This document shows, in pieces, positions 1,533 to 60,722 of a stretch of DNA of 64,000 nucleotides (the first letter of the stretch is position 1; every line of letters begins with the position of its first letter). The notes under the pieces are model-generated. The model did no database searches. It was not told where the DNA came from and saw only the letters and a program-made list of their open reading frames with translations. The position numbers and the translations under genes are program-made. Where the stretch lies: NCBI GenBank assembly GCA_963796275.1, contig CAWCKY010000002.1:608001-672000 (forward strand). The letters are read 5' to 3'. The stretch is from an uncultured Acidobacteriota bacterium (GTDB lineage: Bacteria; Acidobacteriota; Blastocatellia; RBC074).

Positions 1533-2696
1533 TCACCGGTTAGACGCAGTAATTTCCGCTCCCCAATGTACCAGCCGCTTAACGCAGTGCGCCACCTGAT
1601 CAAGCGCCCCATCGCCTTCGAGCAGGACAGGGTGATGAAGAACCAGCATATTAGCATCAGCGCGAGTAGCTTCCGTTAGATCTCCTGCTTTGCGGAAACG
1701 GCGGGAAGATCGGCAGAGATGAAAGGCTCGGAAACCGCCGTTAAAATCTATCCCTTCAGCCCTGGCAGCCTGTACAAATCTTTCCCGAGAAAGCCCTCTG
1801 AATCCTTCCGGCTCGTATCGAAATCCGAGTTTATAATAACCGGGTGAAGTCGATGATATCCGGTTAGCCAATAAACGGAGCCCAGTTACGTCACTCAGTC
1901 GGTCTGCCAATTTTGTAACAGCAGTCTCTCGCTCTCGATTTCTCTCATCCAGTCTCTCCAATTGGGGAAGAAGGACCGTCGCCTGCAACTCCGAGAGCGG
2001 ATAGGCATGGTTACCGCGATTACAATAAACCTGAACACGCTGTTTGACTTCCGGAGACGAGGTCAGTAAAGCGCCCCCACGCCCGGCGGTGAGAAGTTTG
2101 CTTCCACCAAAACTGATAACACCGATATCACCCCAGGTACCGGCCCTGCGCCCTTCAATCAATGCTCCCGGCATCTGACAGGCATCTTCAATTACCGAAA
2201 GACCATGCGCACGAGCTATCGCGGTGACTCTCTCCATGGAAACCGCGCCACCGTGAAGATGAGAGACCAGGATGGCTCGAGTGCTCGGGCTGATGGCTTC
2301 GGCAAGGAGGTCCGGGTTGAGGTTCCAGTTCTGCGGATCGAGATCGATCAATACCGGCCGTGCGCCGACCGCGACTATATCATTGAAATTCCCGATAAAA
2401 TCATAGCCCGCCAGAATAACCTCATCGCCCGGCCCGATCTGCAGAGAGCGCAGCGCCAATTCGATAGCAAAGGTTCCGCTGCAGCAAAGTTCCACAAATT
2501 CGATCTCGTGATATGAAGCCAGTATATCCGCCAGCAGGCGACTATTAGGCCCGTGATAAAGTCCCCACGTACCGTCGATGATTGCACGTTCGATGGCGAG
2601 CGACACCTCTTTCGACGCGGGCGGCCACAATGGCGGGCCTTCTGGGCGAATAGATTCTCCACCAAGTATCGCGGGCAGTTCTGTTTTATCCGTCAT
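1533..2696 (-). CDS. DegT/DnrJ/EryC1/StrS-family PLP-dependent aminotransferase
   Basis: SGTFAIELAL, EDACQ, SFGGSK (PLP lysine), AGRGG; N-terminal LPAILGG resembles the AHBA-synthase/BtrR-like subgroup. Start taken at MTDK (ORF track starts at 2711). Confidence 0.9.
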   Translation of the reverse strand: MTDKTELPAILGGESIRPEGPPLWPPASKEVSLAIERAIIDGTWGLYHGPNSRLLADILASYHEIEFVELCCSGTFAIELALRSLQIGPGDEVILAGYDFIGNFNDIVAVGARPVLIDLDPQNWNLNPDLLAEAISPSTRAILVSHLHGGAVSMERVTAIARAHGLSVIEDACQMPGALIEGRRAGTWGDIGVISFGGSKLLTAGRGGALLTSSPEVKQRVQVYCNRGNHAYPLSELQATVLLPQLERLDERNRERETAVTKLADRLSDVTGLRLLANRISSTSPGYYKLGFRYEPEGFRGLSRERFVQAARAEGIDFNGGFRAFHLCRSSRRFRKAGDLTEATRADANMLVLHHPVLLEGDGALDQVAHCVKRLVHWGAEITASNR

Positions 2697-2838
2697 AATC
2701 CGTCGTCGCATTCGGGCCAGTCCACGGTGAATCGATGCTAACTCCCAAACTTAACCTAGAAAATCTTGTCAACCGGCCACTCTTGTTTCATCATTCCCAA
2801 AATTATTCACTTTATGATCAGATGGATTGGGACATTTT

Positions 2839-3933
2839 ATGAACAAAATTCGTTTTTTGATGATAGGTGGTTTTCTGGGAGCCGGCAAGACTACTACTCT
2901 CGGCCGTTTAGCCAGGGATTATATGAATAAAGGGCTGCAGGTCGGCATCGTGACGAACGATCAGGCTACGGACCTGGTGGATACTCAGAATCTCCGCCGT
3001 CAGGGATTCGATGTCGAGGAGGTGCCGGGAGCCTGCTTCTGCTGCCGCTTCGATGATCTCATCTCGACGATCGGCCGGTTGAGCCAGAATCAAACGCCCG
3101 ACGTGATCCTGGCGGAACCGGTGGGAAGCTGCACCGATCTGGTGGCCACGGTTGTACAGCCGCTCAAACAGTTATATCCCGACCGTTTTCGGATCGCGCC
3201 GTACTCGGTGATCTTGAAGCCCAGCCACGGCCGTCGAATCCTCCGCAATGAAGCGGAGGCGGGGTTCTCTCCGAAAGCGGCCTATATTTTTCGAAAACAG
3301 CTCGAAGAAGCCGATGCCATTCTTCTTAATCGCATCGACGAATTGACTTCCGCAGAAGCCGATGAATTGACGACTCTGGTAAAAGAGGTCAATGCCGATG
3401 TTCCGGTCCTGCGCATCTCCGCGAAGACCGGTCAGGGTCTCGACGCACTGGAAGAGTTATTAGCTCAGGATGGGAACTTCGGCCGCCGCATCCTCGATCT
3501 CGATTATGATATTTATGCCGCCGGTGAGGCCGAATTGGGATGGCTGAACAGCAGCTTGAAATTCTCGAGCCCCCGTGAATTCGAACTCGACGAATTGCTC
3601 CTCGAAATCGTCCGCTCTCTGCGCGACCGTCTCGGCTCGCAGGGGTATGAGACGGCTCATCTGAAGGTCATCGGATTGTGGGAGGGATTTTTCGGTGTCG
3701 CCAATCTGGTGAGTAGCGACAGCAATCCTGAGCTCTCGCTTCCATCGCACAGCCGCGTTCGTGAAGTTGATCTGATCGTCAATGCCAGAGTCGCGACCGA
3801 TCCGGGCATTCTGGAGCGCTTCGTAAGTGAAACGGCACTTAAGCTGGGAGAAGCAAGAGAAGCTCAGGTGCAATTTCACCAGACACAAAGCTTCCGCCCA
3901 GGCCGGCCTGTTCCGACTCATCGGTTTTCTTGA
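2839..3933 (+). CDS. CobW/HypB/UreG (G3E) P-loop GTPase, putative metallochaperone
   Basis: Walker A GFLGAGKT, metal motif GACFCC, Walker B-like LAEPVG, G4 variant NRID, G5 ISAKTG. Confidence 0.9.
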
Positions 3934-3944
3934 TCGTTGGTTCG

Positions 3945-4890
3945 TTATTTTGACGTCAATAGTGCGAGAGACCCCAGGCCGTAAAAGGTGTATTCAGGGA
4001 TCTGTTTCGCCGTCCCAGACAGCACCTCTAAACCCGCCATCATCGAGCTCAAGTTGGCTGACAAATCGCCGGCTTGCGTCCGCATCGATGCTGTGGGTCA
4101 AGTTCAGATGTTGAGCAGTCAGAATACCGGTGAAGGTTGACAGCAGATCGCAAACTGGAATTTGCGTGTTCGCGCGAAAACCACCTTCATCTCCTTTTAC
4201 CTTTGCCAGATAATCCTCAATCCCCTGCAGAATATCCGTCTCAATCGCCTGAAATCGTTTGAGCAGAACTGCGGCGGCGGCAGTGGGGTTCGTGCCGCTG
4301 CGCTTCATCGGGCCGATCTCCACGAATCCTCCGTCATCCCGCCGTCTGGATAAGAGGAACTGTACGATCAGATTCACAGCGGGCGGCGTTCTTCCAAGCA
4401 TTTCATAGCAAAGCACGGCCAGAAATGTGTGATAGGTGCTGCTAGAGCCTCCCTCGTGTGTCCTGGCATATCCGCCATCCGAACGACGGAACGTCTCCAA
4501 CGCCGTAGACAGCTCAGAGATCAATACATCGGCATCGTTCGCAAAGGAGGACGTATTCCCCGTCAGTTGGACGGTGATAAATGAATAGAACCAGCTCACG
4601 AGATCGATCAAGCTATATTGCTGTTTCGCGGCGACTGTCTTCAGGTAATGCTCGACCTGTTGGGAGCGCAAGCCATTCAGCGCATTCAGGAGTGCCAGCC
4701 CGCGCACGGCGAAACTGGTGTAGTAGAGATCGGATCCACCGCTACGACCCGCAAAGCCGCCATCAGGCCGCTGGAAGTTTAGGATAAGTTTGATGTGCCG
4801 CGCGGTACGCTCAGCATCAAGGTCCTTCAATCCTGCTGCCAGCAGTCTGGTCAAGTCGAGAAGGAAACTGTTTTGTGGTTCGCCGATCAT
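3945..4890 (-). CDS. Prenyltransferase/squalene-oxidase repeat (alpha-alpha barrel) protein, GGTase-beta-like; +1 frameshift near the 3' end
   Basis: Repeated DGG(F/Y) motifs (QRPDGGFAG, RSDGGY, DDGGFVE, DEGGFRA, DDGGFRG) each followed by DxxxT-type segments. Removing one G from GGG at 3997-3999 restores ...DPEYTFYGLGSLALLTSK* ending at 3945. Confidence 0.82.
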
Positions 4891-4997
4891 TTGGATTCGA
4901 AGGCATGGCCAGAGAGGCGCGGAGAGAGAAAGAATCGCTTCAAATAGCTATCTTCCTCTCCCCTTCCGTTTCTCTGTGCTTCTGTCGCAGTTTTCAC

Positions 4998-6833
4998 CTA
5001 ATTGAGCACATTGAGCGCAACGAGGTCTCGGGCTATCTCGGGCTCGGTAGATTCATCTGCGAGCGCGGTGTCGACCAGGAAATAAAGTAATTCGCGAAGC
5101 TCATCGGGTTCTACTTCATCGGCGATCGCCTCGGCTCTCTGGCGATATTTCTCAATCAGCGTTCTGGCTTTTTCGAAAACCCGGCATGATTCATAGATGC
5201 GGGCTACTCTGCCAGCGCTCCGCTCATCACGTGAACCGGTCGATATCAGGCCTATGAGCTCTTCTCTTTGCGCTGGCGATGCAGCTTCGAGCGCCAGGGC
5301 AAGCAGGAGCGTCGGACGCATTGCCATGACATCCTGTCCGACGATGCGCTTGTTTTGAAGATCGGTCGACCAGTCCTTGAGATCGTTGATGATCTGAAAC
5401 GCAACTCCGAGATTGCGTGAGAAGTTGGTCACCATCTCCTCGTATTTCTCTACCGGACCAGCCAGGCGCAGACCGGCATATAATGCCGCTTCGAAGGCGG
5501 GCGCTGTCTTGAGGGCATAAATTTTGAGAGCCTCGATGGGCTGAATACTTATCTCTTTCTCCTTATTATCACGCCAGAGGAGTTCGGCGCCTTGCCCTTC
5601 CGCAAGCTTCACGTGCGCCTCTGAGAGACGCTGCAGAATTGCAGCTACGGCTTCGCAGGGCAGATCGCCGCCGGCATTGGCTATTAACCGGTAACCCAAT
5701 CCGAGCAAGTAGTCGCCGGTATTGATGGCGGTGGAAACCCCATAGCGCCGGTGGAGCGTTTGATGGCCGTAGCGATACGCGTCATCATCCTCAATATCGT
5801 CATGCACGAGCGAAGCCTTATGAAATGCCTCCATCGCCATCGCTACGCGACGCACAGAATCGGGAACTTCCTCGACTTTCCGATCATCGCCTGACTCGTC
5901 CGGTCGCGCCGACGGCGCGCCCCGTAGAGCATCATAAGCAGCCAGAGTAATAAATGGACGGAATCGTTTTCCGCCTTTGACCAGCCAGTCGTAGGCGATT
6001 GCCTCGGTGCCAGCTACGGGATCGGCGGCATAGACAGATCCGCCGCCCTGCGATTTACTGCTGCGCAACCTCGGCAGTAGAGCCGGGAAATCTTCGCCGA
6101 ACATGTCGTTGGCGGCACGCAGCAGGGGGACGTAGGTCCTCGTTTTGACCGCAGGCTTCTCCTGATAGGTCTCCAAAACTTCCAGGACCCAATCATTATC
6201 AACTGTGGTGCTCTTGCAGTTGCTCGAATGTAAGGGGATCGCGTAAGCGGGGACACCGCTCTGAACAACCTTCTCGAAAGCTTTTTCGAGGACATTGAGA
6301 CAGGCCACTCCGAGAATGCCATCGATGTATCCGCTGACGATAACCTTGAGCACGATCGGCGTCCCTTCCGCGACCATGATCTTGTAGCCGAGCTTCTCGG
6401 CCTTGATTTTGAAATCGCCGATAGCGCAGGCGCCGCAATCCTCGCAGTGGAGGCCTAACTCGTCGTAGTGAGCGCTACAGGCCTCTACATGCTTGAGGCA
6501 ATGTGGTAAGAGAAAAATTCGTTTATTGAAGGGGATCGAGATGAACTGCTCCTTCCAGAAACCATTGCCGAGCATCACCATAGCGAAACCCAGATATCCT
6601 TGGTCTAGGCCCATTTTCTCAAGCAGGGCTTGCCCGTGAGCCTCCAGTTCTTTTTTGCTCAGCGGGCGGCTGCGATCGATGTCGCGCACGTAATGGAATG
6701 CCTCTGCTCTTATTCTCTCCCTGAGGTCAGGAGTCTCAGGATTCAGTTTGAGCAGTTTGCTCCCGAGCTTCGGCTTTGCCGGTGAATCCGGTTTGACAGC
6801 GACATCCAAGGTTCCTGAAATGAGATCAGACAT
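4998..6833 (-). CDS. DUF116 (Cys-rich) domain fused to trans-polyprenyl diphosphate synthase
   Basis: N-half LPHCL..C..CEDCGAC..GVAC..C (DUF116-like). C-half GGKRFRP, FARM HDDIED, GDYLL, EGQ, KTA, SARM variant FQIINDLKD. Confidence 0.88.
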   Translation of the reverse strand: MSDLISGTLDVAVKPDSPAKPKLGSKLLKLNPETPDLRERIRAEAFHYVRDIDRSRPLSKKELEAHGQALLEKMGLDQGYLGFAMVMLGNGFWKEQFISIPFNKRIFLLPHCLKHVEACSAHYDELGLHCEDCGACAIGDFKIKAEKLGYKIMVAEGTPIVLKVIVSGYIDGILGVACLNVLEKAFEKVVQSGVPAYAIPLHSSNCKSTTVDNDWVLEVLETYQEKPAVKTRTYVPLLRAANDMFGEDFPALLPRLRSSKSQGGGSVYAADPVAGTEAIAYDWLVKGGKRFRPFITLAAYDALRGAPSARPDESGDDRKVEEVPDSVRRVAMAMEAFHKASLVHDDIEDDDAYRYGHQTLHRRYGVSTAINTGDYLLGLGYRLIANAGGDLPCEAVAAILQRLSEAHVKLAEGQGAELLWRDNKEKEISIQPIEALKIYALKTAPAFEAALYAGLRLAGPVEKYEEMVTNFSRNLGVAFQIINDLKDWSTDLQNKRIVGQDVMAMRPTLLLALALEAASPAQREELIGLISTGSRDERSAGRVARIYESCRVFEKARTLIEKYRQRAEAIADEVEPDELRELLYFLVDTALADESTEPEIARDLVALNVLN

Positions 6834-6959
6834 AGAGTTCTCCTACAGATCAGATAGTACACCGCCGGATTTACTTTTAGGTATCGAACCCGAGCCTCGC
6901 GGCCGACTGGCGAAGACCCGAGATGAGCCCACAAGTAATTACGGCGAACGGTAATTAGT

Positions 6960-8840
6960 TTAAGTACGAGCCCGCGCATCACTTGAAACAAATGCGAATG
7001 CGCGTCCCAATGCGCCGACCGTGAAGATCAAAGGGTAGAGCCGTTCAAAGTACCAGAGGTTGGCGAAATAGAATCCAATCGGAGAGGCATTCAGGAAACC
7101 TCCATCCTCCACGCGCTCGACCAGCCAGCGAATACCGCGGGCGAGGGCTTCATTCGCACCGGCAACCTCTCCGCAATCTATCAGCGCATCGATCGCTAGT
7201 GCCGTCTCCTCGACGCTCGAAGGAACGCCCGGGTTACCGCCCCAGCCGCCATCCTCGCATTGGCAGGCAATCAACCATCGGTAGCCTCGCCGGGCCGGCT
7301 CGCCGTCATTCAACCCCAAATCGCGATATGCGGCCAGCACGCGGGCGGTTCCATAAACCGGGTTTTCATCATCCGGAGCGTGTTGATTGCCGAACCAGAG
7401 CGGAAGCCAGGACCCATCCTGCCGTTGAATTCCCTCGAGAAACCGAAACCCGAGCCGACTGGCGCGTTGGAGCTTCCGGGGAAGCTCCCGCAAATTTTCC
7501 CCCACTTCTCTGCCCTTTGCTCCCGCAGCTGAGCTGTGCGCCACATCCTTCCAGGCATTGAGCGCGCGCAATGCATGCGCTGTGATGTCTGCACTGCTGC
7601 GGTCAAAGGGGAGATGCCCCCAGCCGCGGCAAAACGTGGGCCAACCACCGTCGCGGTTTTGCAGGTTCAGCAGCCACTCGAGGCCGGCTATCGCAGCATC
7701 TGTCGACTCCGCCGTCGCGCCCAGATTTCGCAATGCGATCAACGCCCCAGCCGTATCATCCGCGTCGGGTACGGCGCCAGGAAGCGGCGTCCAACCCCAT
7801 CCTCCCGGCGCAGCAGCTGTGAATGGGTGGATCGAACGGTATTGCTGATCGAGCATCCACTGGCGCAGTGGACCCGCGAATTGATCGAAGCGCTCGCCGG
7901 CTTCGCAAAGTGCGTTGATCGACAGGGTAGTCACCCACGTCGAGAGATTCGTATCGATGGGCCAGCTTCCATCGGGCCGGACCGCCTGCACCAGAAAATC
8001 GATCCCCTTCTGAGCCACCGGATGTGTGGCCAGCCCGGCGCCCGCCAGACTCATCGTGACAAAGCTCACCAGCGGGGTAGCTTCAAGAAATCCGCCGTTG
8101 GCGGGTTGAATTGCCTCGAGCTTCCGCAGCGCACCCGGAATCGCAGTCTGCCGAATTGCGCGAAGAACCGGGTTGCGCGACCCGCGCCGTGAGAATTGAA
8201 CGATTCCCAGTGCGATGAGGGCGGGCAATGCATAGCTCACCACCGGCAGGTTGATCCATTTGTAGGCAGAAGCAGGAAGACAGGCCAGTTCGAAAGGAAG
8301 CGGAGGCGCTTCACTCCATTCGATCAACCCTGCCAATGCGCAACAAGACAATATAGGGACAGAAAATGTGCGATCCTGGCCGTACCGCGCGCGAACTGCC
8401 CGTGCCAGCGTTTGCGGGTCGCGCCCGCCCGCGATGCCTTCCAGATAACGTTCCGCCCGCCGCAAACTTTCATCAATTTGCTCTGATGAATCAAAATTCT
8501 CTTTCCCCAGCGTCATTGCTGCGCGGCAGAGCATGGTAGTTGAAATATTCGAGAAACTTCTGATCGTGTCGCCCCAACCGCCGTCGCCATTCTGATGATC
8601 CAGCAGCCAACGAACGCCTCCGGTAATGAGCGCCGAAAAGCGATTTCGATCGATGAGAGCCAGAGCGCAGACCGCCGTCGCGGTAGAAAGTGAAGAACTC
8701 GATAGTTCACCGGTCCAGAACCCTTCGGGACTGCGCTCAGCAAGCAAACAGGATCGGGCCTTGAAATAGGCCGCTGTGAACCGCTCCGGTTCGATTAGCG
8801 ATTCGCTCACGGAGATTGATCTTTTCGCGCTTGGAGTCAT
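6960..8840 (-). CDS. Squalene-hopene-cyclase-like class II terpene cyclase
   Basis: Catalytic DxDD in PDADDTA; QW repeats QNGDGGWG, PDGSW, QNRDGGW, QRQDGSW, QCEDGGWG; about 630 aa. Alternative start 8852. Confidence 0.9.
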   Translation of the reverse strand: MTPSAKRSISVSESLIEPERFTAAYFKARSCLLAERSPEGFWTGELSSSSLSTATAVCALALIDRNRFSALITGGVRWLLDHQNGDGGWGDTIRSFSNISTTMLCRAAMTLGKENFDSSEQIDESLRRAERYLEGIAGGRDPQTLARAVRARYGQDRTFSVPILSCCALAGLIEWSEAPPLPFELACLPASAYKWINLPVVSYALPALIALGIVQFSRRGSRNPVLRAIRQTAIPGALRKLEAIQPANGGFLEATPLVSFVTMSLAGAGLATHPVAQKGIDFLVQAVRPDGSWPIDTNLSTWVTTLSINALCEAGERFDQFAGPLRQWMLDQQYRSIHPFTAAAPGGWGWTPLPGAVPDADDTAGALIALRNLGATAESTDAAIAGLEWLLNLQNRDGGWPTFCRGWGHLPFDRSSADITAHALRALNAWKDVAHSSAAGAKGREVGENLRELPRKLQRASRLGFRFLEGIQRQDGSWLPLWFGNQHAPDDENPVYGTARVLAAYRDLGLNDGEPARRGYRWLIACQCEDGGWGGNPGVPSSVEETALAIDALIDCGEVAGANEALARGIRWLVERVEDGGFLNASPIGFYFANLWYFERLYPLIFTVGALGRAFAFVSSDARART

Positions 8841-8858
8841 CTTGATAACCAAAAATGT

Positions 8859-10367
8859 TCAGGCAAATAGCCTTCCCGATTTTCGGACGAACTGCATCCT
8901 CCACTGCAGTACCTGAAATTGGCCGGTGAACTGGATGAACAGTCGTCTCCAGATACTTGCTCCCGCACCCGTCTGGTTATCCCAATACATTTTGGGAATC
9001 CATTTGAAATTCAGGTTGTAGGCGAGTCGGAAAAGCCGCCAGTGCATCGGAGTCATCTCTTCGATCTTGAAATGATCCCCCAGTCCGGGGATCACTGGTG
9101 AGTAGAAAATCGGGAAGATCACCAATCGTTCATTGTAGAGGTCTTCAATCCAGCGTACCGTCTTTTCGACGTGCTCAGGGGTTTCCCCCGGCAGCCCCAA
9201 AATCAGGCTTATCAATGGGAAGTAACCCGCCTTGATCAGCCGGCGCACCTGCTGGTCGCAAAGCTCGCCCCACTCCGCCGGTTTGTATGGGCGGATTTTG
9301 CCCCCCTTCTGGTTCATATCCAGCAGTTCTCCGCTGGCGGTCTCGACGCCCAGATTAACCCAGAGAAAGTCGTGGCGCTGGCCGTCGACGAGCAGGTCGT
9401 GAACCTCGCGCAGATCGTCATCGGAGTATTGAGCGACGGAGATAATATTGGCGTGATCGATCTGGATGAGTTTCAGCGGCTTGATCTCTCGCAGACGGCG
9501 AATGAGTGCCTTCAAGACGGGTGGATTCACGGGGGCGCGATGCGTATTGCCGTAGCGAAAGAAATCTTCGCTCAACGCGCAGATCGAGGTGACTCCGCGT
9601 TCGACATTCCGTTCGACGTCGGAGGCAACGACATCGAGAGGTATGTGGATCATCCTCTCCGCGGCAATCGTGCAGAACTGGCATCCCTTGCCGCAGCCGC
9701 GGCTGATCTCCACAACCCCCATTGAGGTCGGCCCGCAGATCGCCGGAATCTCATTCTCGCGCGCGCTCCTGGCGGAAACCACGGGCGGCACTTCTCTCCC
9801 GTCTATCAAATCATGAAACCAACCTGCCGCCTGCGTCTCGGCATAACCCTCGACCACCAGATCAATTCCCAGGCTCTCTCTCGCATGCTCATTCTGGGCT
9901 AATTGCCATGCGCCCGCGCCTCCCGCCACCACTTTGAATGATCCTGTCCGCTTCTTCTCTTTCAGTTGATGCAGCAGCCGCTTGTACCAGGTGTGGGTAT
10001 AGAGAGTCCCTCCGGCCATATCTGACATCGTGCTGTTGGACATGCCGCGTCCGAGCGGATCGGAAGATGAGACGGCGACGATCTTCGTCCTCGATCCGAC
10101 ACAGGCTTCCAGGTCTTCCGGAGCGCAGAGGATAACGTCATCGCGGTTGAACCCATCGTTCAGGAGAGCAGCCTCGATGCGCCGCAAGCCCATAGGCGCC
10201 TTGCGTGCCGCAATACCATCGGTCGGCATTCGGGGCGCGATCATCGTGCGCATGATAAGCTCGGGCACCGATGTGGTCTGTATCGTCCCCATCATTCCAT
10301 CGAAAAGCACAGGGTAATCAGCCATCAATGTCCGATCTGCCGTTAAAACTACGGGATATCCGCTCAT
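8859..10367 (-). CDS. Radical SAM protein with N-terminal B12-binding-like region, resembling the archaeal Grs/Gms family
   Basis: CxxxCxxC in EISRGCGKGCQFC; GGAGAWQ, GVETAS, LILGLPGET; N-terminal VVLTADRTLM and APMGLRRIEAALL match my recollection of GDGT ring synthase homologues. Radical SAM call is firm, Grs affinity less so. Confidence 0.8.
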   Translation of the reverse strand: MSGYPVVLTADRTLMADYPVLFDGMMGTIQTTSVPELIMRTMIAPRMPTDGIAARKAPMGLRRIEAALLNDGFNRDDVILCAPEDLEACVGSRTKIVAVSSSDPLGRGMSNSTMSDMAGGTLYTHTWYKRLLHQLKEKKRTGSFKVVAGGAGAWQLAQNEHARESLGIDLVVEGYAETQAAGWFHDLIDGREVPPVVSARSARENEIPAICGPTSMGVVEISRGCGKGCQFCTIAAERMIHIPLDVVASDVERNVERGVTSICALSEDFFRYGNTHRAPVNPPVLKALIRRLREIKPLKLIQIDHANIISVAQYSDDDLREVHDLLVDGQRHDFLWVNLGVETASGELLDMNQKGGKIRPYKPAEWGELCDQQVRRLIKAGYFPLISLILGLPGETPEHVEKTVRWIEDLYNERLVIFPIFYSPVIPGLGDHFKIEEMTPMHWRLFRLAYNLNFKWIPKMYWDNQTGAGASIWRRLFIQFTGQFQVLQWRMQFVRKSGRLFA

Positions 10368-10370
10368 ATA

Positions 10371-10528
10371 CAGTTTTCAGTTTTCAGTTTTCAGTTTCCA
10401 GTTTCCAGTTTTCAGTTTAGTTTCCAGTTTTCAGTTTTCGGGTTTGTAAACAGTTTCAGTAGAGACCGAAATCTGAATCCTGTCGGACAATAGGCACAAC
10501 AAGGGCAAACTAAAAACTGAAAACTGAA
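10371..10528. repeat. Heptamer (CAGTTTT/C) tandem array with a shorter inverted array (AAAACTG)
   Basis: About 10 units at 10371-10438; AACTAAAAACTGAAAACTGAA at 10508-10528. Confidence 0.9.
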
Positions 10529-10543
10529 TCCTGTCAACCGAGA

Positions 10544-11581
10544 TCAAATTTCAAGGCTATCCAACTCATCCATGAGTTTGTCGAGGTCATCTTTTTCGGA
10601 AGCGGCCCTTCCAACCTGGCGCTTGGGAATACCGATCGTGAGCCCCACCGCAGTGCGTCCATCTTTAATCAACTCCACGTCACGCTCCTGGGCAGCCAGC
10701 TCGATTGCGCTTGGCGCGCCGAAAAGCCGGGAGAGATCGATCTTCAGACCTCCTGGCCCTTCACCCGGCGCTCCGGCGATAGCCGGCATCTTGTGCTCCG
10801 GAAAGATGATGGCATTCTCCGGACAGACCCGGCTGCATGCAGGGCAACCGCGCTTACAGTTATCCTGATTCTCGACGAGAATCCGCTCCTTCCGATCAAT
10901 CCCGTAAACGCCGAAGAGACAAAAATCGATGCACTCCAGGCAGTTGGTGCATCGGCTGTAATCAATCACCGGATACCAGCGAGTCTCTTTCGACTCTCCC
11001 AGCACAACCGGTCTGGTCTTATCATCAGACGCCAAAAATCGCTGCATCTGATCCGGTTTCGGATCGCCACTCAGCCATCCAGTCAATGGAACGAACTCGA
11101 TCGAAGCCTCTTTCGCGATACGCTTGACTTCATCGACATAGACATTCGGTTCTTCATAAGCCCTGAGGTCGAGGCAGAAAAGATGGCGGTCAGGCGTCTC
11201 GGCGGGGCCGATAGCATTATTTCCCTCGTCATTTCCCGAGTCACCCTCTCCTATCGCCTCGTCTTCGCCTTCTTCGCCAGATTCTTCTCCCAGGCTTTTT
11301 AAAAGAGTGACTCCTTTTTTCCCGCTGATACCATTGCGGTCGAGGAGCCAATGTGCCGCTCTCGGGTAGAGCCACGAGAGGAGAATCAAATGGCCTTTTA
11401 CGGAATTCAGGTATAGCAGGCCGGTGTCACCCGGTGAGAGGTCATAGACGTGTGGCACCACCGCGAAATCGATCCCGGGTTCGAGCAGCAGGGCCGTAGC
11501 GATCTCTTCTTCGAGATGGCGTTTGGCGGGGTTTTTACCGCGCGTCTGCGAAAGGACGACTGTTATGCGATTTGCAGCCAT
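10544..11581 (-). CDS. 2x[4Fe-4S] ferredoxin-domain protein with uncharacterised N-terminal domain
   Basis: CTNCLECIDFC and CKRGCPACSRVCP motifs; acidic linker EESGEEGEDE. Confidence 0.85.
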   Translation of the reverse strand: MAANRITVVLSQTRGKNPAKRHLEEEIATALLLEPGIDFAVVPHVYDLSPGDTGLLYLNSVKGHLILLSWLYPRAAHWLLDRNGISGKKGVTLLKSLGEESGEEGEDEAIGEGDSGNDEGNNAIGPAETPDRHLFCLDLRAYEEPNVYVDEVKRIAKEASIEFVPLTGWLSGDPKPDQMQRFLASDDKTRPVVLGESKETRWYPVIDYSRCTNCLECIDFCLFGVYGIDRKERILVENQDNCKRGCPACSRVCPENAIIFPEHKMPAIAGAPGEGPGGLKIDLSRLFGAPSAIELAAQERDVELIKDGRTAVGLTIGIPKRQVGRAASEKDDLDKLMDELDSLEI

Positions 11582-11601
11582 AATGAAATTGTTCGGAAGT
11601 C

Positions 11602-12057
11602 TTACTCGTGCATCTGCCCCTTGATCTGGCGTTGCGTATCTTCCCAGGTGCCTTTCAAATGCTCCATGTAATCCACAGCGCTCAGCAGAGTGGCGTTTTT
11701 CGGTGCGAAGTCGAAGAGCCAGCCTTTTCCATAATTGTCGACATTGATCGATGTCGGGTCCCTCATAAGTTCACGGTTGAAGCGCAATATCAGTCCGTCT
11801 GCAGGCGCGTGAAGCGTAGAGACAGCCTTCGAGCTCTCAATCTCTCCCATCTCCTGCTTGGCTTGAACTGCAGTATCAGCTTCTATGCTCCAGTCTAAAA
11901 AGTAAACATCTTGAAGTAACCGGACGGCGAAGGCGGTGAACCCGACCCGGTATGCGTCCGTCACGGCTTGAAACCACATATGGCTTCGCACATAAAGGCG
12001 ATCGGTCGGAAACCGGGCCTCGTATTTTCCCATCATGAATATGAGGTATTCAGACAT
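11602..12057 (-). CDS. Glycine cleavage system H-protein-like (lipoyl-domain) protein
   Basis: FPTDRLYVRSHMW, RVGFTAFA, GEIESSKAVS (lipoyl Lys position), INVDNYGKGWLF. Confidence 0.88.
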   Translation of the reverse strand: MSEYLIFMMGKYEARFPTDRLYVRSHMWFQAVTDAYRVGFTAFAVRLLQDVYFLDWSIEADTAVQAKQEMGEIESSKAVSTLHAPADGLILRFNRELMRDPTSINVDNYGKGWLFDFAPKNATLLSAVDYMEHLKGTWEDTQRQIKGQMHE

Positions 12058-12183
12058 CAGCGGTCATTGCCAAATGTTCGCGGTCAGTCTACCACGCAAT
12101 CTGGCTTATGGCACAGTGACGTGCAAGCGATTTGGCCTGGCAGATTCAATGAGGTTATTATCACAATATTGATGGAGGTGTTT

Positions 12184-13275
12184 ATGGATACTTTAGACTC
12201 ATCAAATCGGAGAAGGATTGCTGGAATGATCTTACGATCGGCAGTCTGTGCGATCGCAATCTATAGTCTTGGGAGCGGAGTTTTAAGCACATATGGCGCG
12301 CAATCTGACGGCGCAAAGCAGAAAAAACCTGACGATCAGCAAAAAAGTGAAAGCAAGGGTAAGGCGGATGGGGCCCAACACGGTTCGGCATTACTGTGGC
12401 AAGAGCCGGCCGACATCGAGCGGCGCGACCTTTTCTACGGGATCGGCGGGCAAGCTGGCGCACCCGACCCGGCTGACAAATTGACATTCGCGGGCGATAA
12501 AGGCTCACCCAAAGACTCGAATCCCAAGATTGACGTCAAGGATAGCCGCGGGCGCGAATGGACGGTGAAGTTCGGGCCCGAGGTCAAATCGGAGACGGCT
12601 GTCTCGCGCATCGTCTGGGCGGCCGGATATTACGTGGATCAAGTCTATTTCGTCGAGAAGGCGACAATCGAAGGATTCAACCGGATCGAAACACGAAATA
12701 TGCGGTTTGAACGCGAAGACGACGGGTTAAAGACCGTTGGCCGCTGGGACTGGAATACCAATCCGTTTATTGGCACGCGCGAACTCGATGGTCTCAAGAC
12801 CCTGATGGCGCTCGTCCAAAACGTAGATCTATCGATACTGAACAACCGGATCGCGCGCCCCAAAAAGAGCGACGATAAGACTCAGACGGATATCTACTAT
12901 GTGAATGACCTGGGAGCGGCGCTCGGTTCGACAGGGGCCTGGTACACCCGGTTTCCCTGGGTTGATAATGCTCGATCCGAGAGCAAGGGTGTCCCCAAGG
13001 ATTACGTAAAGAACGGATTCATCTCAGGAATTAAGAATGGCGAGGTCGACTTCCACGTCACGAGGAGGCGAACTAATCGGATACTCGACGGCGTAAAAGT
13101 CGAAAATGCCAGATGGATGGGAAACCTTCTCGGTCGCTTGTCAAAAAAACAACTCGCGGACGCGTTCCGGGCCGGCGGTTTCAGCGACGCTGAAGTGGAT
13201 ACTTATGTGGATGAGATACGTAAACGGATATCGCAGCTTCAAAACCTGGAGCGGGATGATCTGATGACTCGATAA
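12184..13275 (+). CDS. Exported hypothetical protein with atypical protein-kinase-like motifs
   Basis: GGAGG RBS before ATG 12184; signal-like N-terminus; WTVKF (Lys), SE (Glu), NVDLSILN (DxxxxN), NDLG (DFG-like). Confidence 0.7.
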   Translation: MDTLDSSNRRRIAGMILRSAVCAIAIYSLGSGVLSTYGAQSDGAKQKKPDDQQKSESKGKADGAQHGSALLWQEPADIERRDLFYGIGGQAGAPDPADKLTFAGDKGSPKDSNPKIDVKDSRGREWTVKFGPEVKSETAVSRIVWAAGYYVDQVYFVEKATIEGFNRIETRNMRFEREDDGLKTVGRWDWNTNPFIGTRELDGLKTLMALVQNVDLSILNNRIARPKKSDDKTQTDIYYVNDLGAALGSTGAWYTRFPWVDNARSESKGVPKDYVKNGFISGIKNGEVDFHVTRRRTNRILDGVKVENARWMGNLLGRLSKKQLADAFRAGGFSDAEVDTYVDEIRKRISQLQNLERDDLMTR

Positions 13276-18276: not shown

Positions 18277-21200
18277 TTAAAAGGAAATTCTCAATCCGAA
18301 CTGAATACTTCGACTGCCTGCTCTCAATCCGATAATCTTCCCGAAGTCCCTATCGGTCACGCCGCCAACCGGATCCCCATATTGCGTCGTGTTGAAGGCG
18401 TTGTAGAATTCCGCCCTGAATTGCACGTTCACTCGCTCCTTGATCAGCTGGCTGCGGGAGAGCATGAGATCGAAAGTTTTGATACCCGGCCCTCGAAGAT
18501 TCGGCTGTGTACGCGAATCACTCCCCAATGTGAACGGCCGGGCAACCTCGAATGCCGTCTTATCGAACCAACTGTTGATCGTCTGTTCCCCGTTCGGCAA
18601 TATGGGTGACCTCAATTTGACTGCTGTCGCTCCGACACCGGGCAATGACGTGGCGCCAGGCGCGGTAATGACCACCGGTATCCCACTGGCGAAATTGGTG
18701 ATTCCCGAGATCTGCCAATTGCCCAGCAGATGGCCCGCCCAACCTCTCGCCAGCCATCTCTTCCCCGGTCCAAGCGGAAATTGGTAGACATAGCTCAACG
18801 CCAATATCTGAGGTCGATCATATTCGGCAACCGATCGAGAGAGCGCGAGGTTGTTCGGGTCGATATAGTTTGCACGTGAGTAAAAATTCTCCGACACATT
18901 GTTGATCTGCTTGCTCACCGTATAAGCAGCCTGGAATAGCAACCCATGGCCAAACCTCTTATCCACTCGCACCGTCATGCCGTGGTAGATCGAGTCTCCC
19001 GCGGCATCGACGTTTCGGTAGACATCCGTGTAATGTGGGTATGGCCTCAGAAGTTGCGACCGGCGTATTCTCTCAGCGCTTAATGGGCCGGTGGTGATTT
19101 GACCGAAGTACGGGTTATTCACCAGCTCATTCAACCCGTTTTCCAAAGAAAGGTGATCTGTGCTGACGGCATTCTGGTTACGCGCGATCCAGATGCGCTG
19201 CCCCCGGTTGCCGATATAAGCAAGCTCAATCAGCATATCCCGCGTCAGCGTTCGCTGGATGTTGAGGTTCCATTGATGGTTGAACGGTGTCACCCAATCG
19301 CGGAGCATCGTGTTGATGCCGGCCCCTACGCCAGTCGTTGGAGGAGGTATAAATCCACTGATGAACGGATTCGCCAAAGAAGCCCCTTCAGGCGGTGTAT
19401 TGGGCGCTTCGGGCGCCTGGCCCAGGAAGACCGGAGTACGCGTGAGGAATCCGTCTCCCAAAGCGATTACACCGGATCCTATCCCACCGCTGCCCGGGAA
19501 ATAAAAGAGACCATAGCCGATACGCAGAACCGTATCTTTCTTAAACTCCCAGGCCAGTCCAAATCGCGGTGCGAAGTTGTTCCGGTCCGGATCGAATTGA
19601 TGACGCGTGTTGCCGTCGCGCCCTGCGTAACGCAGGACGCCTTTCTCCCCCGTGATCGGTTCGATGGCGTCGGGGTCGAAGTAAGCCAACTGATCGAATC
19701 GATCGGTCCAAGGTGACTGATATTCCCAACGCATCCCTAAATTGAGCGTGAGGCGGCGGCCCACTTTCCAGTCATCTTGCGCGTACCAGGCATAGTATTT
19801 TTGCGATGCGGCCAGGGTCGGGTCATCTGAGATAAGTCCTCCGGTCGGTGCGCCGAGCAGAAGCGTGGCCACACCGTGACCTGATGAGGCATTTGCAACG
19901 AGAGGGTTCGGCCCCTGCGTGAACTCGCGCCCGAACGAATAGGAGCCCGACGGCTGTTCCGGGCGGAAGATGTTGAATGCGGTGAACATGAGGTCAAAAC
20001 CCGTTTTCACCGAATGGTCTCCGCGTTGCCAGGTGAAATGCCCCTGGGCTTCTCCGGTATTCTCGGCATCGGTGAAATAGAATGCCCTGTCCGGCCCCAG
20101 AGGGATCTACATCGGAGATATTGAATCGCGGGAAGAGGAGGGTCTTGGAATAATTTTTTAGTGATTCGGAAAATCCGAGTTGCGTGAAATCGAATCCGAC
20201 GCTCTCAGGAGTCAGGACAAACAGGGCGCGCGCGAAACTGGCGCGGAACTCTGCGACCAGGTTCGGATTGAGTGTGATCGTATCCCCCAGAATAAAGGCT
20301 CGCGGATGGAACTCGAATACTCCTCCATTAGCGGGGAACGCTTCGTTGAGGCTGGGCGTCACCGGTTCGCCATCCTGCCTACCATAACTCATAAACAGTT
20401 TATGGCTCTTCCCGAGGTTGTGGTCGACGCGGAAAAACATCTTCCACTGATCATTTATGCTTGAACCACCGGTCTGGACGAAGTTCTGCGTCAGCGTCGA
20501 TCTGTTCGGAAGCGGGTAGTACTCCAGCACCCGACGAGCGATCGGATCGATCCGGTCGGGACAAATCACATTGAGCCTGTCACCACAACTGATCTGTTGG
20601 CGAAGGTATATGGATTGGCCGGGCCTATCCGGATCGGGTACCGTTACTGTTGTGCGCGGATTTGGATCAAAGATTTTGATAAGGTTGCCGTTGTTATCGA
20701 ACGTCTGTGAAAAATCGCCGGCGCGCTCCAGGGCAGTCGGTACAGTAGCAACGAGTTGGTATGGTGAACGCGATTTAGTCTGTTCCCAGTTGACGAAGAA
20801 GAAAGTCCGGTCGTGCCCGTTGTAAAGCCGCGGCAGGTAGACCGGTCCGCTCACCGAAAATCCATATTCGTTCCGTCGAAACGGAGTGCGGTCCACGCCG
20901 CGCAGATTGTTGAAGAATGAGTTGGCGTTCAGCTTGTCGTTTTGCAGGTACTCGTAGAAGCTGCCGTGCAGAGCGTTGGTCCCCGAACGAGTGCTGGCTG
21001 TCAGCACACCGCCGCCCGATCGCCCGAATTCAGCCGACATGCTGTTGGTGATGACTTTGAATTCCCCCACTGCCTCCAGAGGCGGTGTGTAGGCGATCCC
21101 GCCTGAAGTGGTGTTGCGCGTCTCGGCGCCGTCGAGCAATATTTCTGTGGTGCTTATTCGGCCGCCATTGATCAGGGATCCGGCCCCCCCACCGACGATG

Positions 21201-21712
21201 GGGGCCACACCTGGCGCCAGCGTCAACAGATCGTAAGGGTTGCGACCGGCCGTGGGCAATTGGATGATCTGACTGCTCACGAACACATTGCCGAGTGTCG
21301 CGGTTTGACGTTCGAGTTGCACGGAAGTGGCTGTCACCGTCACCGCATCGAGCTGCAATGTTCCAGGCGCAAGTGAGACATTGATCGTGGCCGTCAGCCC
21401 CACGGTGATCACGATTCCTACAACGCGCCCTTTGCTGAATCCCTGACTCTCCACAGTCAACTCATACTGTCCAATCGGCAGGTATGGCACACGGTAATGC
21501 CCCTCCTCATTGGTCCGGGTCTCCCGCTTAACCCCCGTCTGGGTGTGAGTAACGACGATCAGCGCGCTGGGAACGATTGCTCCCGACTGATCCGTCACTG
21601 TCCCGGTAATGGTACCCTGGTCTATCTGAGCGAATGCCGTCGATGTAAACCCATAGAAAAAAAATACAAGTATTGCCGTGGCTGATGGCAAACGCCAACC
21701 GTGACGCCTCAT
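18277..21712 (-). CDS. TonB-dependent receptor paralogue, split by one +1 frameshift (probably a sequence error)
   Basis: ORFs 19994-21712 and 18277-20010 are colinear with the neighbouring paralogue. Deleting one G at 20102-20104 gives DVDPLGPDRAFYFTDAEN, matching the paralogue's DVASLGPDRASYFTDAEN. Ends QFGLRISF. Confidence 0.88.
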
Positions 21713-47588: not shown

Positions 47589-48299
47589 TCAGTGCCCGCT
47601 CGTGATATGGAATCCGGTCAGATAGAGCAGCGGGAAGAGGAATATCCAAACGATGTCGACGAAGTGCCAATAGAGCCCGCTGATCTCAATCGGCGAATTA
47701 TAATCTTTAGTGAACTTTCCTCTCATCGTCATCAGAATCAATGTGATCAGAATACCGATTCCGACGATCATGTGGACCGCGTGCAATCCCGTCATCATGA
47801 AATAGATCCACAAGAAGACCTGCACTGGCTGTTTTAATTCCAGTGGCACGCTATGACCGGTCGACCCGATTGTAGGGTTGTATAACGCCGCTGCCGGAAA
47901 GAGGTGATCTTCGATCTTCGATTTGTATTCGAAATATTTGATGACCAAAAAGACGATCCCCAGCAGCAGGGTTACCGTCAGGAATAGCAGCACCCTCTTC
48001 TTGTTCCCCAGCTGCGAGTAGTAGACTCCCATCGCCATCGTCAGACTGCTGAGAATCAGCACAACCGTGTTCGTGCCTCCCAGAGGCACATTTAGTAAAT
48101 GGCTGCCGTATGAGAAACCAGCCGGATAGGTTGTCCGATAGATCGTATAAGCCAGGAACAGCCCGCCGAAGAACATGATTTCAGTGAGGAGGAAGAGCCA
48201 CATCCCGATCGTTCCGGCTTCTTTCTGCTGCTCCATCGAAACGAAGTGATGAGCCAATCCTGGCACGTGCGCTGTGTGTGCTGTCTGAGTTTCCGCCAA
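47589..48299 (-). CDS. ctaE: Cytochrome c oxidase subunit III
   Basis: [41 protein letters not shown]; TTG start after AGGAG. Confidence 0.93.
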
Positions 48300-48318
48300 A
48301 ATAAGTTCTCCTAAATGG

Positions 48319-48384
48319 TTTTCAGTTTTAGTTTTCAGCAGGCGCCCCTGACCAACAACTGAAAACTGGAAACTGGAAACTGAA
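48319..48384. repeat. CAGTTTT/AAAACTG heptamer inverted arrays between oxidase subunits I and III
   Basis: GTTTTCAGTTTTAGTTTTCAG ... CTGAAAACTGGAAACTGGAAACTGAA. Confidence 0.85.
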
Positions 48385-48385
48385 T

Positions 48386-50045
<1,660 letters not shown>

Positions 50046-50179
50046 AATAGTTACCTTATTAAATTAGATGCCCGCGCTGGTGACGGGACACATTCTTTGA
50101 GCCATATCCCATCCCAAAAGCGAAAGCGAGGTTGATGACAATGAAATTTTGCCTCAGTTGCCTCCTCGCCATTTTTGTT

Positions 50180-52725: not shown

Positions 52726-52746
52726 CTCTCAAATCTCAAATCATTC

Positions 52747-54650: not shown

Positions 54651-54664
54651 ATTTTGCCTTTTTA

Positions 54665-55210: not shown

Positions 55211-55296
55211 AATCGCTAAGTGATATTTGCTAATCGATAATTGATGGGGAAAGTATGGCTTTCTCCAATGATCAATTTTCAATTACCAATTGTTCT

Positions 55297-59914: not shown

Positions 59915-59922
59915 CTCAATTT

Positions 59923-60030: not shown

Positions 60031-60032
60031 TC

Positions 60033-60722
<690 letters not shown>

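Follow-up and report, generated by a model that had tools for sequence, protein, structure and literature searches.

Results

Conservation of a gene set around an orphan terpene cyclase

Eight genes at positions 1533..12057 of a 64,000 nt stretch of DNA from an uncultured Acidobacteriota bacterium (Blastocatellia; RBC074; GCA_963796275.1, contig CAWCKY010000002.1, 608,001-672,000 of the forward strand; the whole stretch is called the window in the following) belong, as judged by sequence comparison, to a widely conserved bacterial gene set around an orphan terpene cyclase. The locus represents a real and conserved pathway, which is uncharacterised and has been partly noticed in print, and the gene set probably makes a ring-containing isoprenoid lipid. 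We consider it fairly probable that the locus is one version of an old and widespread set that makes a cyclic isoprenoid independently of squalene and hopanoid synthesis, and without oxygenases. Comparison of the radical S-adenosylmethionine (SAM) enzymes suggests that the window carries the rarer variant of this cluster, in which a B12-type radical SAM enzyme replaces the usual auxiliary-cluster type.

Genes were called from a listing of open reading frames (ORFs), and domains were assigned by Pfam and NCBIfam scans. This confirmed the eight genes, their coordinates, their domains and their arrangement as given in an earlier reading of this DNA from its letters and ORFs (the sequence-only reading). 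Six co-oriented genes form a row on the minus strand. In transcription order they encode a GcvH-like lipoyl-carrier paralogue, a ferredoxin-like protein, a radical SAM enzyme of 502 aa, a class II cyclase, a fusion of a DUF116 domain and a polyprenyl diphosphate synthase, and an alpha-alpha toroid related to prenyltransferases, with gaps of 20, 176, 6, 126 and 107 nt between them. The row converges on a cobW gene (60 nt between), which is divergent from a DegT-family gene (115 nt between). A simple scan of the locus for promoters and terminators gave counts that were not above those of shuffles.

Related loci were sought by a pattern scan with one genome per species. The scan returned 601 matched stretches, 580 of which encode a relative of the cyclase; the related loci, at least 580 in number, are found in Planctomycetota, Verrucomicrobiota, Acidobacteriota and other groups. 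The best 80 loci of the 580 were analysed further. They stem from Planctomycetota (Gemmata, Gimesia, Schlesneria, Fuerstiella, Phycisphaerae), Verrucomicrobiota (Chthoniobacter flavus Ellin428, Pedosphaera, Akkermansiaceae), Acidobacteriota (Holophagae, Bryobacterales) and Sumerlaeota. Among the data sets listed as containing DNA of the locus there was none of RNA; those listed were soil and plant metagenomes with small shares of the DNA words (0.16, 0.11 and 0.09).

Neighbours of the cyclase gene were identified by tblastn with the proteins of the window and of a Spartobacteria locus, and were counted within 10 kb of the cyclase in those 35 loci whose two flanks each span 8 kb or more. The DUF116 synthase was the most frequent neighbour (23 of 35 loci), followed by the ferredoxin-like protein (18), the GcvH-like protein (15), the toroid (13) and a second radical SAM enzyme of about 420 aa (10). 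The GTPase, a small conserved protein and a NifS-type desulfurase were each present in 8 of the 35 loci. DegT was found in 1/35 and the 502-aa radical SAM enzyme in 0/35, a count that leaves out loci with shorter flanks, among which are three more with DegT and three with the 502-aa enzyme.

The genes occur in two layouts. The first, found in Verrucomicrobiota, Phycisphaerae and other Acidobacteriota, comprises, in this order, genes for NifS, the GcvH-like protein, the GTPase, the small protein, the ferredoxin, the ~420-aa radical SAM enzyme, the DUF116 synthase, the toroid and the cyclase, often as nine genes on the same strand, as seen in two Acidobacteriota genomes and in loci of Verrucomicrobiota and Phycisphaerae. 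In the second layout, found in Planctomycetia, a radical SAM gene and the GTPase gene lie on one strand and the genes for DegT, the GcvH-like protein, ferredoxin, cyclase, DUF116 synthase and toroid on the other. The window has the second layout, and the small protein was not found in clusters of the window type.

The gene set is also kept where its members are not linked. When the synthase gene did not lie beside the cyclase gene, it was found elsewhere in the genome in 4 of 5 cases. Five carriers with scattered genes were inspected, namely a Gimesia metagenome-assembled genome (MAG), Chthoniobacter flavus Ellin428, Gemmata sp. IIL30, a Planctomycetota MAG and an Akkermansia MAG. All five have the ~420-aa radical SAM enzyme (61-70% identity), the GTPase (43-65%) and the toroid on other contigs. 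That the set is retained without linkage speaks most strongly for a joint function of its genes. In a sample of 151 genomes drawn evenly from Acidobacteriota, one of them (G049) unpublished, profiles for the cyclase (E<=1e-84), the DUF116 fusion (E<=1e-72) and the toroid (E<=1e-33) hit an identical set of 6 genomes and left the remaining 145 unmatched; without G049, the co-occurrence is 5/150.

The presence of the same families beside the cyclase in other phyla, together with the co-occurrence at the genome level, demonstrates that the arrangement is more than chance. The sequence-only reading had proposed that the genes form one pathway and that similar genes co-occur in Planctomycetota and Verrucomicrobiota, and both the locus survey and the carriers with scattered genes support a unit that is conserved across these two phyla and Acidobacteriota. 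It had also named three outcomes that would speak against it, namely a lack of co-occurrence, a match to a known cluster, and plain hopene synthesis with dispensable neighbours; we found none of the three.

The cyclase and its separation from the hopanoid pathway

The cyclase gene (6960..8852, minus strand) encodes a class II enzyme of the squalene-hopene cyclase (SHC) type, with matches to PF13249 (SQHop_cyclase_N, 69.1 bits) and PF13243 (SQHop_cyclase_C, 136.8 bits). Translation possibly starts at an ATG four codons downstream, which gives the 626-aa form present in the database. Residues 363-366 (DADD) align with the DxDD motif of the solved Alicyclobacillus SHC, and its three Asp residues (D363, D365 and D366) do not vary among 13 homologues, which stem from three phyla. 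By this motif the enzyme would protonate a terminal double bond and close several rings. Its scores on curated models are far from the respective cut-offs: 106.7 bits versus 431.1 on TIGR01507 (hopene cyclase), 134.6 versus 322.7 on TIGR01787 (general squalene cyclase) and 86.9 versus 851 on TIGR03463.

According to the sequence-only reading the locus is not a canonical hopanoid locus, and the true one is indeed found elsewhere in the same genome (9.46 Mb, 7 contigs, 94.7% complete). On contig C4, HpnC (324.7 bits), HpnD (287.7), HpnE (412.5), SHC (777.3) and HpnJ (665) all score above their cut-offs, and HpnC, HpnD, HpnE and HpnJ flank the true SHC. NCBIfam scans assigned none of the 13 window proteins scanned to an hpn family. 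The cluster cyclase shares 26% identity with the SHC of its own genome, which forms a very long branch in a FastTree phylogeny of 80 cyclases. Among other carriers, the SHC-like enzyme was the only SHC-family match in 4 of 5, and none of the five had a match above the SHC cut-off. The locus under study is not the hopanoid pathway, and the hopanoid locus of this bacterium is separate.

Relatives of the cyclase with 47-59% identity are found in Gemmata, Gimesia, Schlesneria, Chthoniobacter, Pedosphaera, Akkermansiaceae, Holophagae and Bryobacterales. By its domains, motif, divergence and taxonomic range the enzyme would fit the class II clade designated "SHC-like / unknown function". Santana-Molina et al. 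2020 (PMC7306690) use the name "SHC-like" for such proteins; as their main text puts it, the planctomycete ones alone retain the catalytic residues, and the genomic context hints at a precursor other than squalene, the product being unknown. The text of a 2025 preprint, [quoted passage not shown] (PMC12324236), lists clade members from PVC (Planctomycetes, Verrucomicrobia, Chlamydiae), FCB (Fibrobacteres, Chlorobi, Bacteroidetes), Spirochaetota and Acidobacteriota, describes function and structure as undetermined even for Gemmata, and reports that the stem of the clade carries excess substitutions on the surface that forms the SHC-type dimer.

In the FastTree phylogeny, the window cyclase pairs with a groundwater Planctomycetota sequence (support 97) and falls outside the clade (support 96) with the other Acidobacteriota, as seen by comparison with loci L050, L058, L061 and L070. 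Profile searches did not find the gene set in 11 sampled genomes of the class or family to which the window belongs. Together with the NDxxD motif of the synthase described below, this grouping and this distribution suggest lateral acquisition, and a transfer of the set from Planctomycetota is plausible.

Two probably interchangeable radical SAM families

The radical SAM gene of the window (8859..10367, minus strand) lies between the ferredoxin gene and the cyclase gene. Its 502-aa product matches PF04055 (Radical_SAM, 43.2 bits) with the motif CGKGCQFC, and has an N-terminal Rossmann domain that is B12-binding-like, the match to PF02310 being weak (E 0.003). On TIGR04013 it scores 66.5 bits versus a cut-off of 251. 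The only invariant cysteines in 24 sequences of the family are C225, C229 and C232 (CX3CX2C), and there are no cysteines for an auxiliary cluster. A profile search of the PDB found the cores of RimO and MiaB (3e-10), and the B12 radical SAM enzyme TsrM at E 0.28.

The ~420-aa family has in 16 sequences an invariant CX3CX2C motif and four more invariant cysteines, which would fit an auxiliary Fe-S cluster. This enzyme was not found in the genome that carries the window, where the best match has 26% identity (E 3.6e-7). The best curated matches of the radical SAM enzymes of the clusters were to TIGR04013 and to MiaB/RimO-type and NirJ/AhbC-type models, all far below cut-offs.

Three other genomes (loci L067, L068 and L073) have the 502-aa family in the cluster, and in L067 its gene holds the slot between ferredoxin and synthase that the ~420-aa gene occupies elsewhere. 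In all four genomes with the 502-aa enzyme in the cluster, including that of the window, the ~420-aa orthologue is absent; in L067, L068 and L073 the best ~420-aa match reaches 47-56 bits versus 497-673 bits for orthologues. The ~420-aa enzyme is present in 9 of 9 other carriers tested. Its gene adjoins the synthase gene in 4/4 Acidobacteriota carriers tested, and no 502-aa orthologue was found in these four. The two families are mutually exclusive among the carriers tested, which we read as the replacement of one radical SAM enzyme by another, unrelated enzyme that would do the same job. In the proposed pathway, this one enzyme, of the cobalamin type in the window and of the auxiliary-cluster type in most relatives, would act on an unactivated isoprenoid carbon to form a C-C bond, add a methyl group or carry out a similar reaction.

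The same architectural split is described in a 2026 review on archaeal radical SAM enzymes that form C-C bonds at unactivated carbons of isoprenoid chains (PMC13459092). According to its text, auxiliary clusters are present in Tes and Gms, and a B12-type domain is present in GrsA and GrsB, which lack such a cluster. Likened by these descriptions only, the two families of the cluster may be seen in analogy to Tes/Gms and GrsA/GrsB. The term "Grs-like", used in the sequence-only reading, is acceptable at most for this architecture, as an analogy and not as a statement of homology; among solved structures RimO and MiaB have the closest cores, and the NCBIfam matches include no Grs model.

The DUF116-prenyl synthase fusion

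The gene at 4998..6833 (minus strand) encodes a fusion of a Cys-rich DUF116 domain (residues ~70-219; PF01976, 124.3 bits versus a cut-off of 25) and a trans-polyprenyl diphosphate synthase (residues ~283-590; PF00348 polyprenyl_synt, 162.3 bits). All 42 cluster synthases that the 80 loci yielded carry DUF116 as a fusion. Seven cysteines of the domain (C112, C119, C130, C133, C136, C178 and C206), which include a CxxCxxC motif, are invariant in the alignment of 35 of these sequences.

The first Asp-rich motif of the synthase, ASL(V/I)HDDI(E/Q)D with small residues at -4/-5, is kept in 43 of 43 aligned sequences, and the signatures GGKRFRP and KT are canonical, with slight departures in the GQ and Lys regions. 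The second Asp-rich motif had been given as DDxxD in the sequence-only reading. It reads NDLKD (NDxxD type) in the window and in the Planctomycetia-type orthologues, and is DDxxD in the cluster type of Verrucomicrobiota and other Acidobacteriota. The same reading had proposed a "long" prenyl chain. In NCBIfam scans, encapsulin-cargo, IdsA, geranylgeranyl diphosphate (GGPP) and farnesyl diphosphate (FPP) synthases rank above octaprenyl and solanesyl synthases, all below their cut-offs, and among solved structures an archaeal GGPP synthase (1wy0) comes closest. Since the closest relatives are of the short- to medium-chain GGPP/FPP type, the chain length cannot be called and the word "long" is unsupported. 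By similarity, the synthase half would build a regular all-trans prenyl diphosphate of roughly C20-C35.

A structural model of the DUF116 domain (mean predicted local distance difference test score, pLDDT, 84) has a Rossmann/flavodoxin-like sandwich. Foldseek gave no match to it at E<=0.001, and a wide VIA-align comparison gave a best Z of 7.1, with generic Rossmann, receiver and periplasmic-binding folds tied at the top. The modelled fold thus shows only a flavodoxin/Rossmann-like arrangement without a specific relative. It agrees, at the level of a model, with Makarova et al. 2015 (PMC5898192), who in the passages on this family predict DUF116 (arCOG02078, COG1852) to be a flavodoxin-like, metal-binding electron-transfer domain, and mention its fusion to a polyprenyl synthetase in Pirellula staleyi. 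The archaeal members described there are likewise Cys-rich with CxxCxxC. They stand alone, have two N-terminal membrane helices and lie near genes for sulfite/nitrite reductase or ATPases, unlike the DUF116 of the cluster, which is the N-terminal half of the synthase. For a Bipolaricaulota isolate, the legend of a figure in a 2025 preprint lists a DUF116 gene near genes for a polyprenyl synthetase, IspH, SHC and an HpnH-like enzyme.

Stand-alone DUF116 genes were also observed in Acidobacteriota, five further genomes of the phylum sample carrying only short genes of this kind. In two genomes (G030 and G046; L095 5947-6546 and L096 5926-6513) the gene lies directly upstream of a four-gene 2-oxoacid:ferredoxin oxidoreductase operon, which encodes POR gamma, a Fer4_20/Pyr_redox_2 protein, POR alpha and POR beta. 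In another genome (G036; L094 5071-6755, minus strand) it abuts a gene for a UbiA-family prenyltransferase, beside MlaD and MlaE lipid-transport genes. This pair is a second, independent link of DUF116 to enzymes of prenyl diphosphates. An apparent fusion of the two in G036 was rejected by hhalign and resolved into two abutting genes, and apparent natural fusions in long open frames of G044 and G090 turned out to be separate genes in different frames.

The constant fusion raises an alternative that we consider unlikely, namely that the Fe-S domain DUF116 makes the synthase carry out a reductive or irregular, non head-to-tail coupling. The ferredoxin would then feed DUF116, the GTPase and the pyridoxal phosphate (PLP) enzyme would mature it, and the accessory genes would serve the synthase instead of tailoring; the substrate of the cyclase would be an unusual, possibly partly reduced chain and not a plain polyprenyl diphosphate. 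The invariable fusion with its seven invariant cysteines would suit this explanation, as would the electron-transfer role predicted in PMC5898192, the NDxxD motif of the window-type clusters and the stand-alone DUF116 genes beside UbiA in one genus and POR operons in two others. Ferredoxin and GcvH-like genes moreover travel with either the synthase or the cyclase. The other cluster type, however, has the canonical DDxxD together with the same DUF116 fusion and accessory genes, so that the Asn is not tied to the Fe-S module, and apart from the slight deviations in the GQ and Lys regions the remaining synthase signatures are canonical. The link of NDxxD to irregular coupling comes from plant chrysanthemyl diphosphate synthase and would be an extrapolation for the cluster enzymes. 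We prefer regular chain synthesis followed by cyclisation, in which the DUF116 domain, together with the ferredoxin-like protein, would pass electrons.

A prenyltransferase-like toroid without a conserved Cys/His zinc site

The last gene of the row (3994..4890, minus strand) encodes a single-barrel alpha-alpha toroid of 298 aa ("PTtor"; PF00432 Prenyltrans, 62.2 bits). Its AF2 model has a pLDDT of 92.6. The best Foldseek matches were the beta subunits of RabGGTase, GGTase3 and FTase (E 7e-8), and VIA-align superimposed the model on protein prenyltransferase beta subunits with Z 23 and a root mean square deviation of 2.6 Å over ~253 residues at 12-17% identity. In protein prenyltransferases, the zinc-thiolate site is formed by Asp, Cys and His ligands. 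No Cys or His is present in the invariant or near-invariant columns of 25 toroid sequences; the invariant Asp248 may be the counterpart of the Asp ligand. An alpha subunit (PPTA, PF01239) was found neither in the cluster nor in the genome of the window at its completeness of 94.7%. The fold is thus alike to that of the beta subunits of RabGGTase, GGTase-I, GGTase-III and FTase, and the Cys/His site and the alpha subunit are not, which shows that the toroid is not a classical zinc thiol-prenyltransferase. The conserved Arg, Tyr and Asp residues would suit the binding of diphosphate and lipid, and we propose that the barrel binds a lipid diphosphate as a handling or transfer subunit.

As a separate observation, the cultured strain Chthoniobacter flavus Ellin428 carries an inserted gene of the Fic/DOC family (L043 8224-8625, plus strand) between those for the DUF116 synthase and the toroid.

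Ferredoxin, carrier, GTPase and PLP enzyme

The ferredoxin-like protein (10544..11581, minus strand; 345 aa) gave Fer4-family matches and has eight cysteines in two ferredoxin-type motifs (residues ~204-259). The central 2x[4Fe-4S] domain, with its matches at residues 202-259, is followed by a conserved C-terminal tail; the N-terminal ~190 residues match no Pfam or NCBIfam family. The core is 57% identical to the protein of the Spartobacteria cluster, and the protein is a putative electron carrier. Its gene adjoins that of the GcvH-like protein in 15 of the 35 long loci. The idea that the small Cys protein of the other cluster type corresponds to the N-terminal part of the window protein was dropped, as there is no similarity.

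The GcvH-like protein is encoded by the first gene of the minus-strand row (11602..12057; PF01597 GCV_H, 78.3 bits). It scores 76.4 bits on TIGR00527 versus a cut-off of 115.85, and a canonical gcvH (158.9 bits) is present elsewhere in the genome. Lys77, a lipoyl-type lysine within ESSKA (E-x-x-K-A context), is invariant in 23 sequences.

The cobW gene (2827..3933, plus strand) encodes a CobW/G3E-family GTPase (PF02492, 79.7 bits), a putative metallochaperone. Its CxCC motif reads CFCC, in columns that are conserved in 12 sequences. Pfam gave no match to a CobW_C domain beyond residue ~213 at E<=0.001; the C-terminal half is conserved and of a non-CobW_C type. Orthologues in carriers, linked or unlinked, share 41-66% identity. 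This GTPase would load a metal centre.

The gene at 1533..2711 (minus strand) encodes a PLP enzyme of the DegT/DnrJ/EryC1 family (PF01041, 217.6 bits) that remains below every NCBIfam equivalog cut-off. The divergent DegT-cobW pair recurs in L017, L018, L022 and L078 with 51-55% identity. At the equivalent position, the other cluster type has a NifS/IscS cysteine desulfurase. This replacement makes an amino-sugar head group unlikely as a general feature, and the "aminated head group" of the sequence-only reading is not supported in this general form. The lipoyl-type carrier and the PLP enzyme may serve redox, sulfur or amino chemistry.

The toroid and the carrier together allow a further explanation, for which we see very little chance: the barrel would attach the prenyl chain to a carrier thiol or amine, provided either by the lipoyl arm of the GcvH-like protein or by a small Cys protein, and cyclisation and radical chemistry on this conjugate would lead to a prenylated cofactor or protein and not to a free membrane lipid. 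It would explain the match of the toroid to protein prenyltransferase beta subunits over the whole barrel, the invariant lysine of a carrier that is a second, divergent paralogue beside the canonical gcvH, and the small conserved protein and the cysteine desulfurase of the other cluster type. Against it stand the loss of the zinc-thiolate site and the alpha subunit that was not found in the genome. In addition, Pfam and NCBIfam revealed no lipoate ligase or transferase in the cluster, the GcvH-like protein of the window contains no Cys, and the small protein is not found in window-type clusters.

Weighing of the proposed pathway

The reading that we favour, synthesis of a regular prenyl diphosphate, its handling by the barrel, ring closure by the cyclase and radical SAM tailoring, should be oxygen-independent, as none of the eight cluster gene products matched an oxygenase or epoxidase family in Pfam or NCBIfam and as Akkermansia and Anaerohalosphaeraceae MAGs are among the carriers. 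Several points weigh against this reading. The six positive genomes of the phylum sample fall in five families, and kin are not independent. An enzyme of the SQS_PSY family is present in 4/5 carriers tested, and in those four squalene or a similar head-to-head product, though less likely, may be the substrate. With NDLKD as the second Asp-rich motif in the window and in Planctomycetia-type clusters, ordinary chain elongation is not certain. DUF116 may be a general redox module, given its POR-operon neighbours. The toroid lacks conserved Cys and His, and its role is a guess. The GTPase subfamily is present in 5 of the 6 carriers of the phylum sample and in one genome (G105) without profile matches for cyclase, DUF116 or toroid, and was not found in the carrier G106 (fragmented, 90% complete); its presence in an unrelated context in G105 and the negative result in G106 mean that it is not strictly tied to the cyclase. 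The difference in PLP enzymes between the cluster types indicates either a non-core step or a chemical difference. Finally, substrate, chain length, product and accessory roles were all deduced from family membership and gene neighbourhood.

The GTPase relative in G105 (L100 8107-10128, plus strand) is 46% identical, has an N-terminal extension of ~300 residues in the open frame and sits among ORFs without a Pfam match.

That two unrelated modules lie side by side, a terpenoid trio of synthase, toroid and cyclase and an Fe-S/carrier set (GcvH-like protein, GTPase, ferredoxin, radical SAM and PLP enzymes) working in some other process, would account for the frequent separation of the two sets in genomes, the GTPase once without the trio and the link of stand-alone DUF116 to energy-metabolism genes, but is highly doubtful in view of tight nine-gene same-strand operons that combine both sets in three phyla, the interleaved order with the radical SAM gene between ferredoxin and synthase or cyclase, the position of GcvH-ferredoxin directly upstream of the cyclase in Planctomycetia, the retention of both sets in all five scattered-gene carriers and the ~420-aa radical SAM gene beside the synthase in the four Acidobacteriota carriers.

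The favoured reading of one pathway can be extended to a more specific proposal, which we offer as a long shot. The set would be an oxygen-independent route to polycyclic, regular (head-to-tail) polyprenoids, possibly lipids of the tricyclopolyprenol type. Barrel and cyclase would form a hetero-complex, a radical SAM enzyme of either family would form a C-C bond or methylate on a saturated part of the chain, in parallel to archaeal Tes and Grs, and electrons would pass via DUF116, ferredoxin and the lipoyl-type carrier. Lipids of this type have long been postulated, reportedly by Ourisson and co-workers, as the origin in bacteria of tricyclic terpanes, which abound in rocks and oils.

Relation to known systems

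The SHC-like clade, as described in PMC7306690 and PMC12324236, shares with the cluster cyclase the two-domain SHC type, the retained DxDD, the occurrence in PVC bacteria and Acidobacteriota including Gemmata, and a context that points away from squalene. The gene set is not described in the main text of PMC7306690 or in the available text of PMC12324236. To this clade, the window adds a Blastocatellia-like member (by database names) with a variant radical SAM enzyme and DegT.

Hopanoid biosynthesis is similar in its class II DxDD cyclase, its radical SAM enzymes and its oxygen-independent polycyclic isoprenoid product. It differs in that the cluster has a dedicated head-to-tail prenyl synthase in place of squalene synthesis, and no hpn gene. 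The epoxy-polyprenyl cyclases Lon15 and AtoE, placed as a sister clade of the SHC-like clade in the text of PMC12324236, act as well on an all head-to-tail prenyl chain (C25, C40) from a pathway-specific prenyl synthase. Their substrates are epoxidised and they come from Actinomycetes, whereas the cluster cyclase retains DxDD. With this motif kept and no oxygenase or epoxidase match in the cluster, direct protonation of an alkene is expected. The Bacillus sporulenol pathway (HepS/HepT, YtpB, SqhC), as outlined in the main text of PMC7306690, also makes a non-squalene chain from a regular polyprenyl diphosphate, which is cyclised by an SHC relative. Unlike this pathway, the cluster is without a YtpB-type class I enzyme, has a cyclase of another clade, and contains added Fe-S, radical SAM and carrier genes.

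The sequence-only reading knew of no characterised product. This holds for the literature searched, which lay outside subscription journals and gave no account of the gene set other than in the papers cited, and the texts of the two clade papers call the clade uncharacterised; the clade, its odd genomic context and the DUF116-synthase fusion had, however, already been mentioned in print. New are the Blastocatellia-type member, the figures for genome-level co-occurrence, the interchangeable radical SAM enzymes, the non-zinc prenyltransferase-like barrel, and a carrier genome that also has a full hopanoid locus.

The texts of the two phylogenetic studies (PMC7306690, PMC12324236) present the clade as the largest block of SHC relatives without known substrate or product, and state that knowledge of its function would constrain the evolution of hopanoid and sterol cyclases and might assign orphan biomarkers in rocks. 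The present analysis turns an orphan cyclase into a testable list of parts: the cyclase itself, a dedicated Fe-S-linked synthase and the barrel, a radical SAM enzyme from either of the two families, and in addition ferredoxin, GTPase, carrier and PLP enzyme. Cultured strains, for example Chthoniobacter flavus Ellin428 and Gemmata, possess the set. Considering the lack of an oxygenase match and the presumed lifestyle of the Akkermansia and Anaerohalosphaeraceae carriers, the product could arise in anoxic settings. Should the product be a minor known lipid, the finding would only tidy annotation.

Neighbouring genes and other features of the window

The locus is flanked by two-component genes (2-1502), an ORF of 435 aa (11968-13275), a metallophosphoesterase gene and a gene for a TonB-type receptor. 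By tblastn, these flanking genes are not conserved beside the cyclase in related loci, and they were therefore not counted as parts of the cluster. The 435-aa ORF (plus strand) has no Pfam or NCBIfam match. At its upstream end it shares 90 nt with the GcvH-like gene, and its true start therefore probably lies further in. The TonB-type receptor (OMP_b-brl_4 and CarboxypepD_reg; 18277-21712, minus strand) is split into two ORFs, of which 19994-21712 covers profile positions 1-271 and 18277-20010 positions 301-838. This is either a frameshifted or pseudogenised gene or an assembly indel.

Further downstream, on the minus strand at 47589-60722, a row of alternative complex III genes (ActD, an NrfD-like subunit, a 1059-aa Fe-S subunit and a multihaem cytochrome) adjoins caa3-type oxidase genes, which encode COX1-3 with COX2 fused to SCO1 and cytochrome c domains. 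The gene for cytochrome oxidase subunit I (48830-50045, minus strand) looks fragmentary, as ORF 48830-49642 covers COX1 profile positions 103-336 only and is overlapped from upstream by ORF 49335-50045. The cause may be a frameshift or an error in sequencing. At 39928-41802 (plus strand), a single ORF of 624 aa combines the domains of porphobilinogen deaminase (HemC) and uroporphyrinogen-III synthase (HemD).

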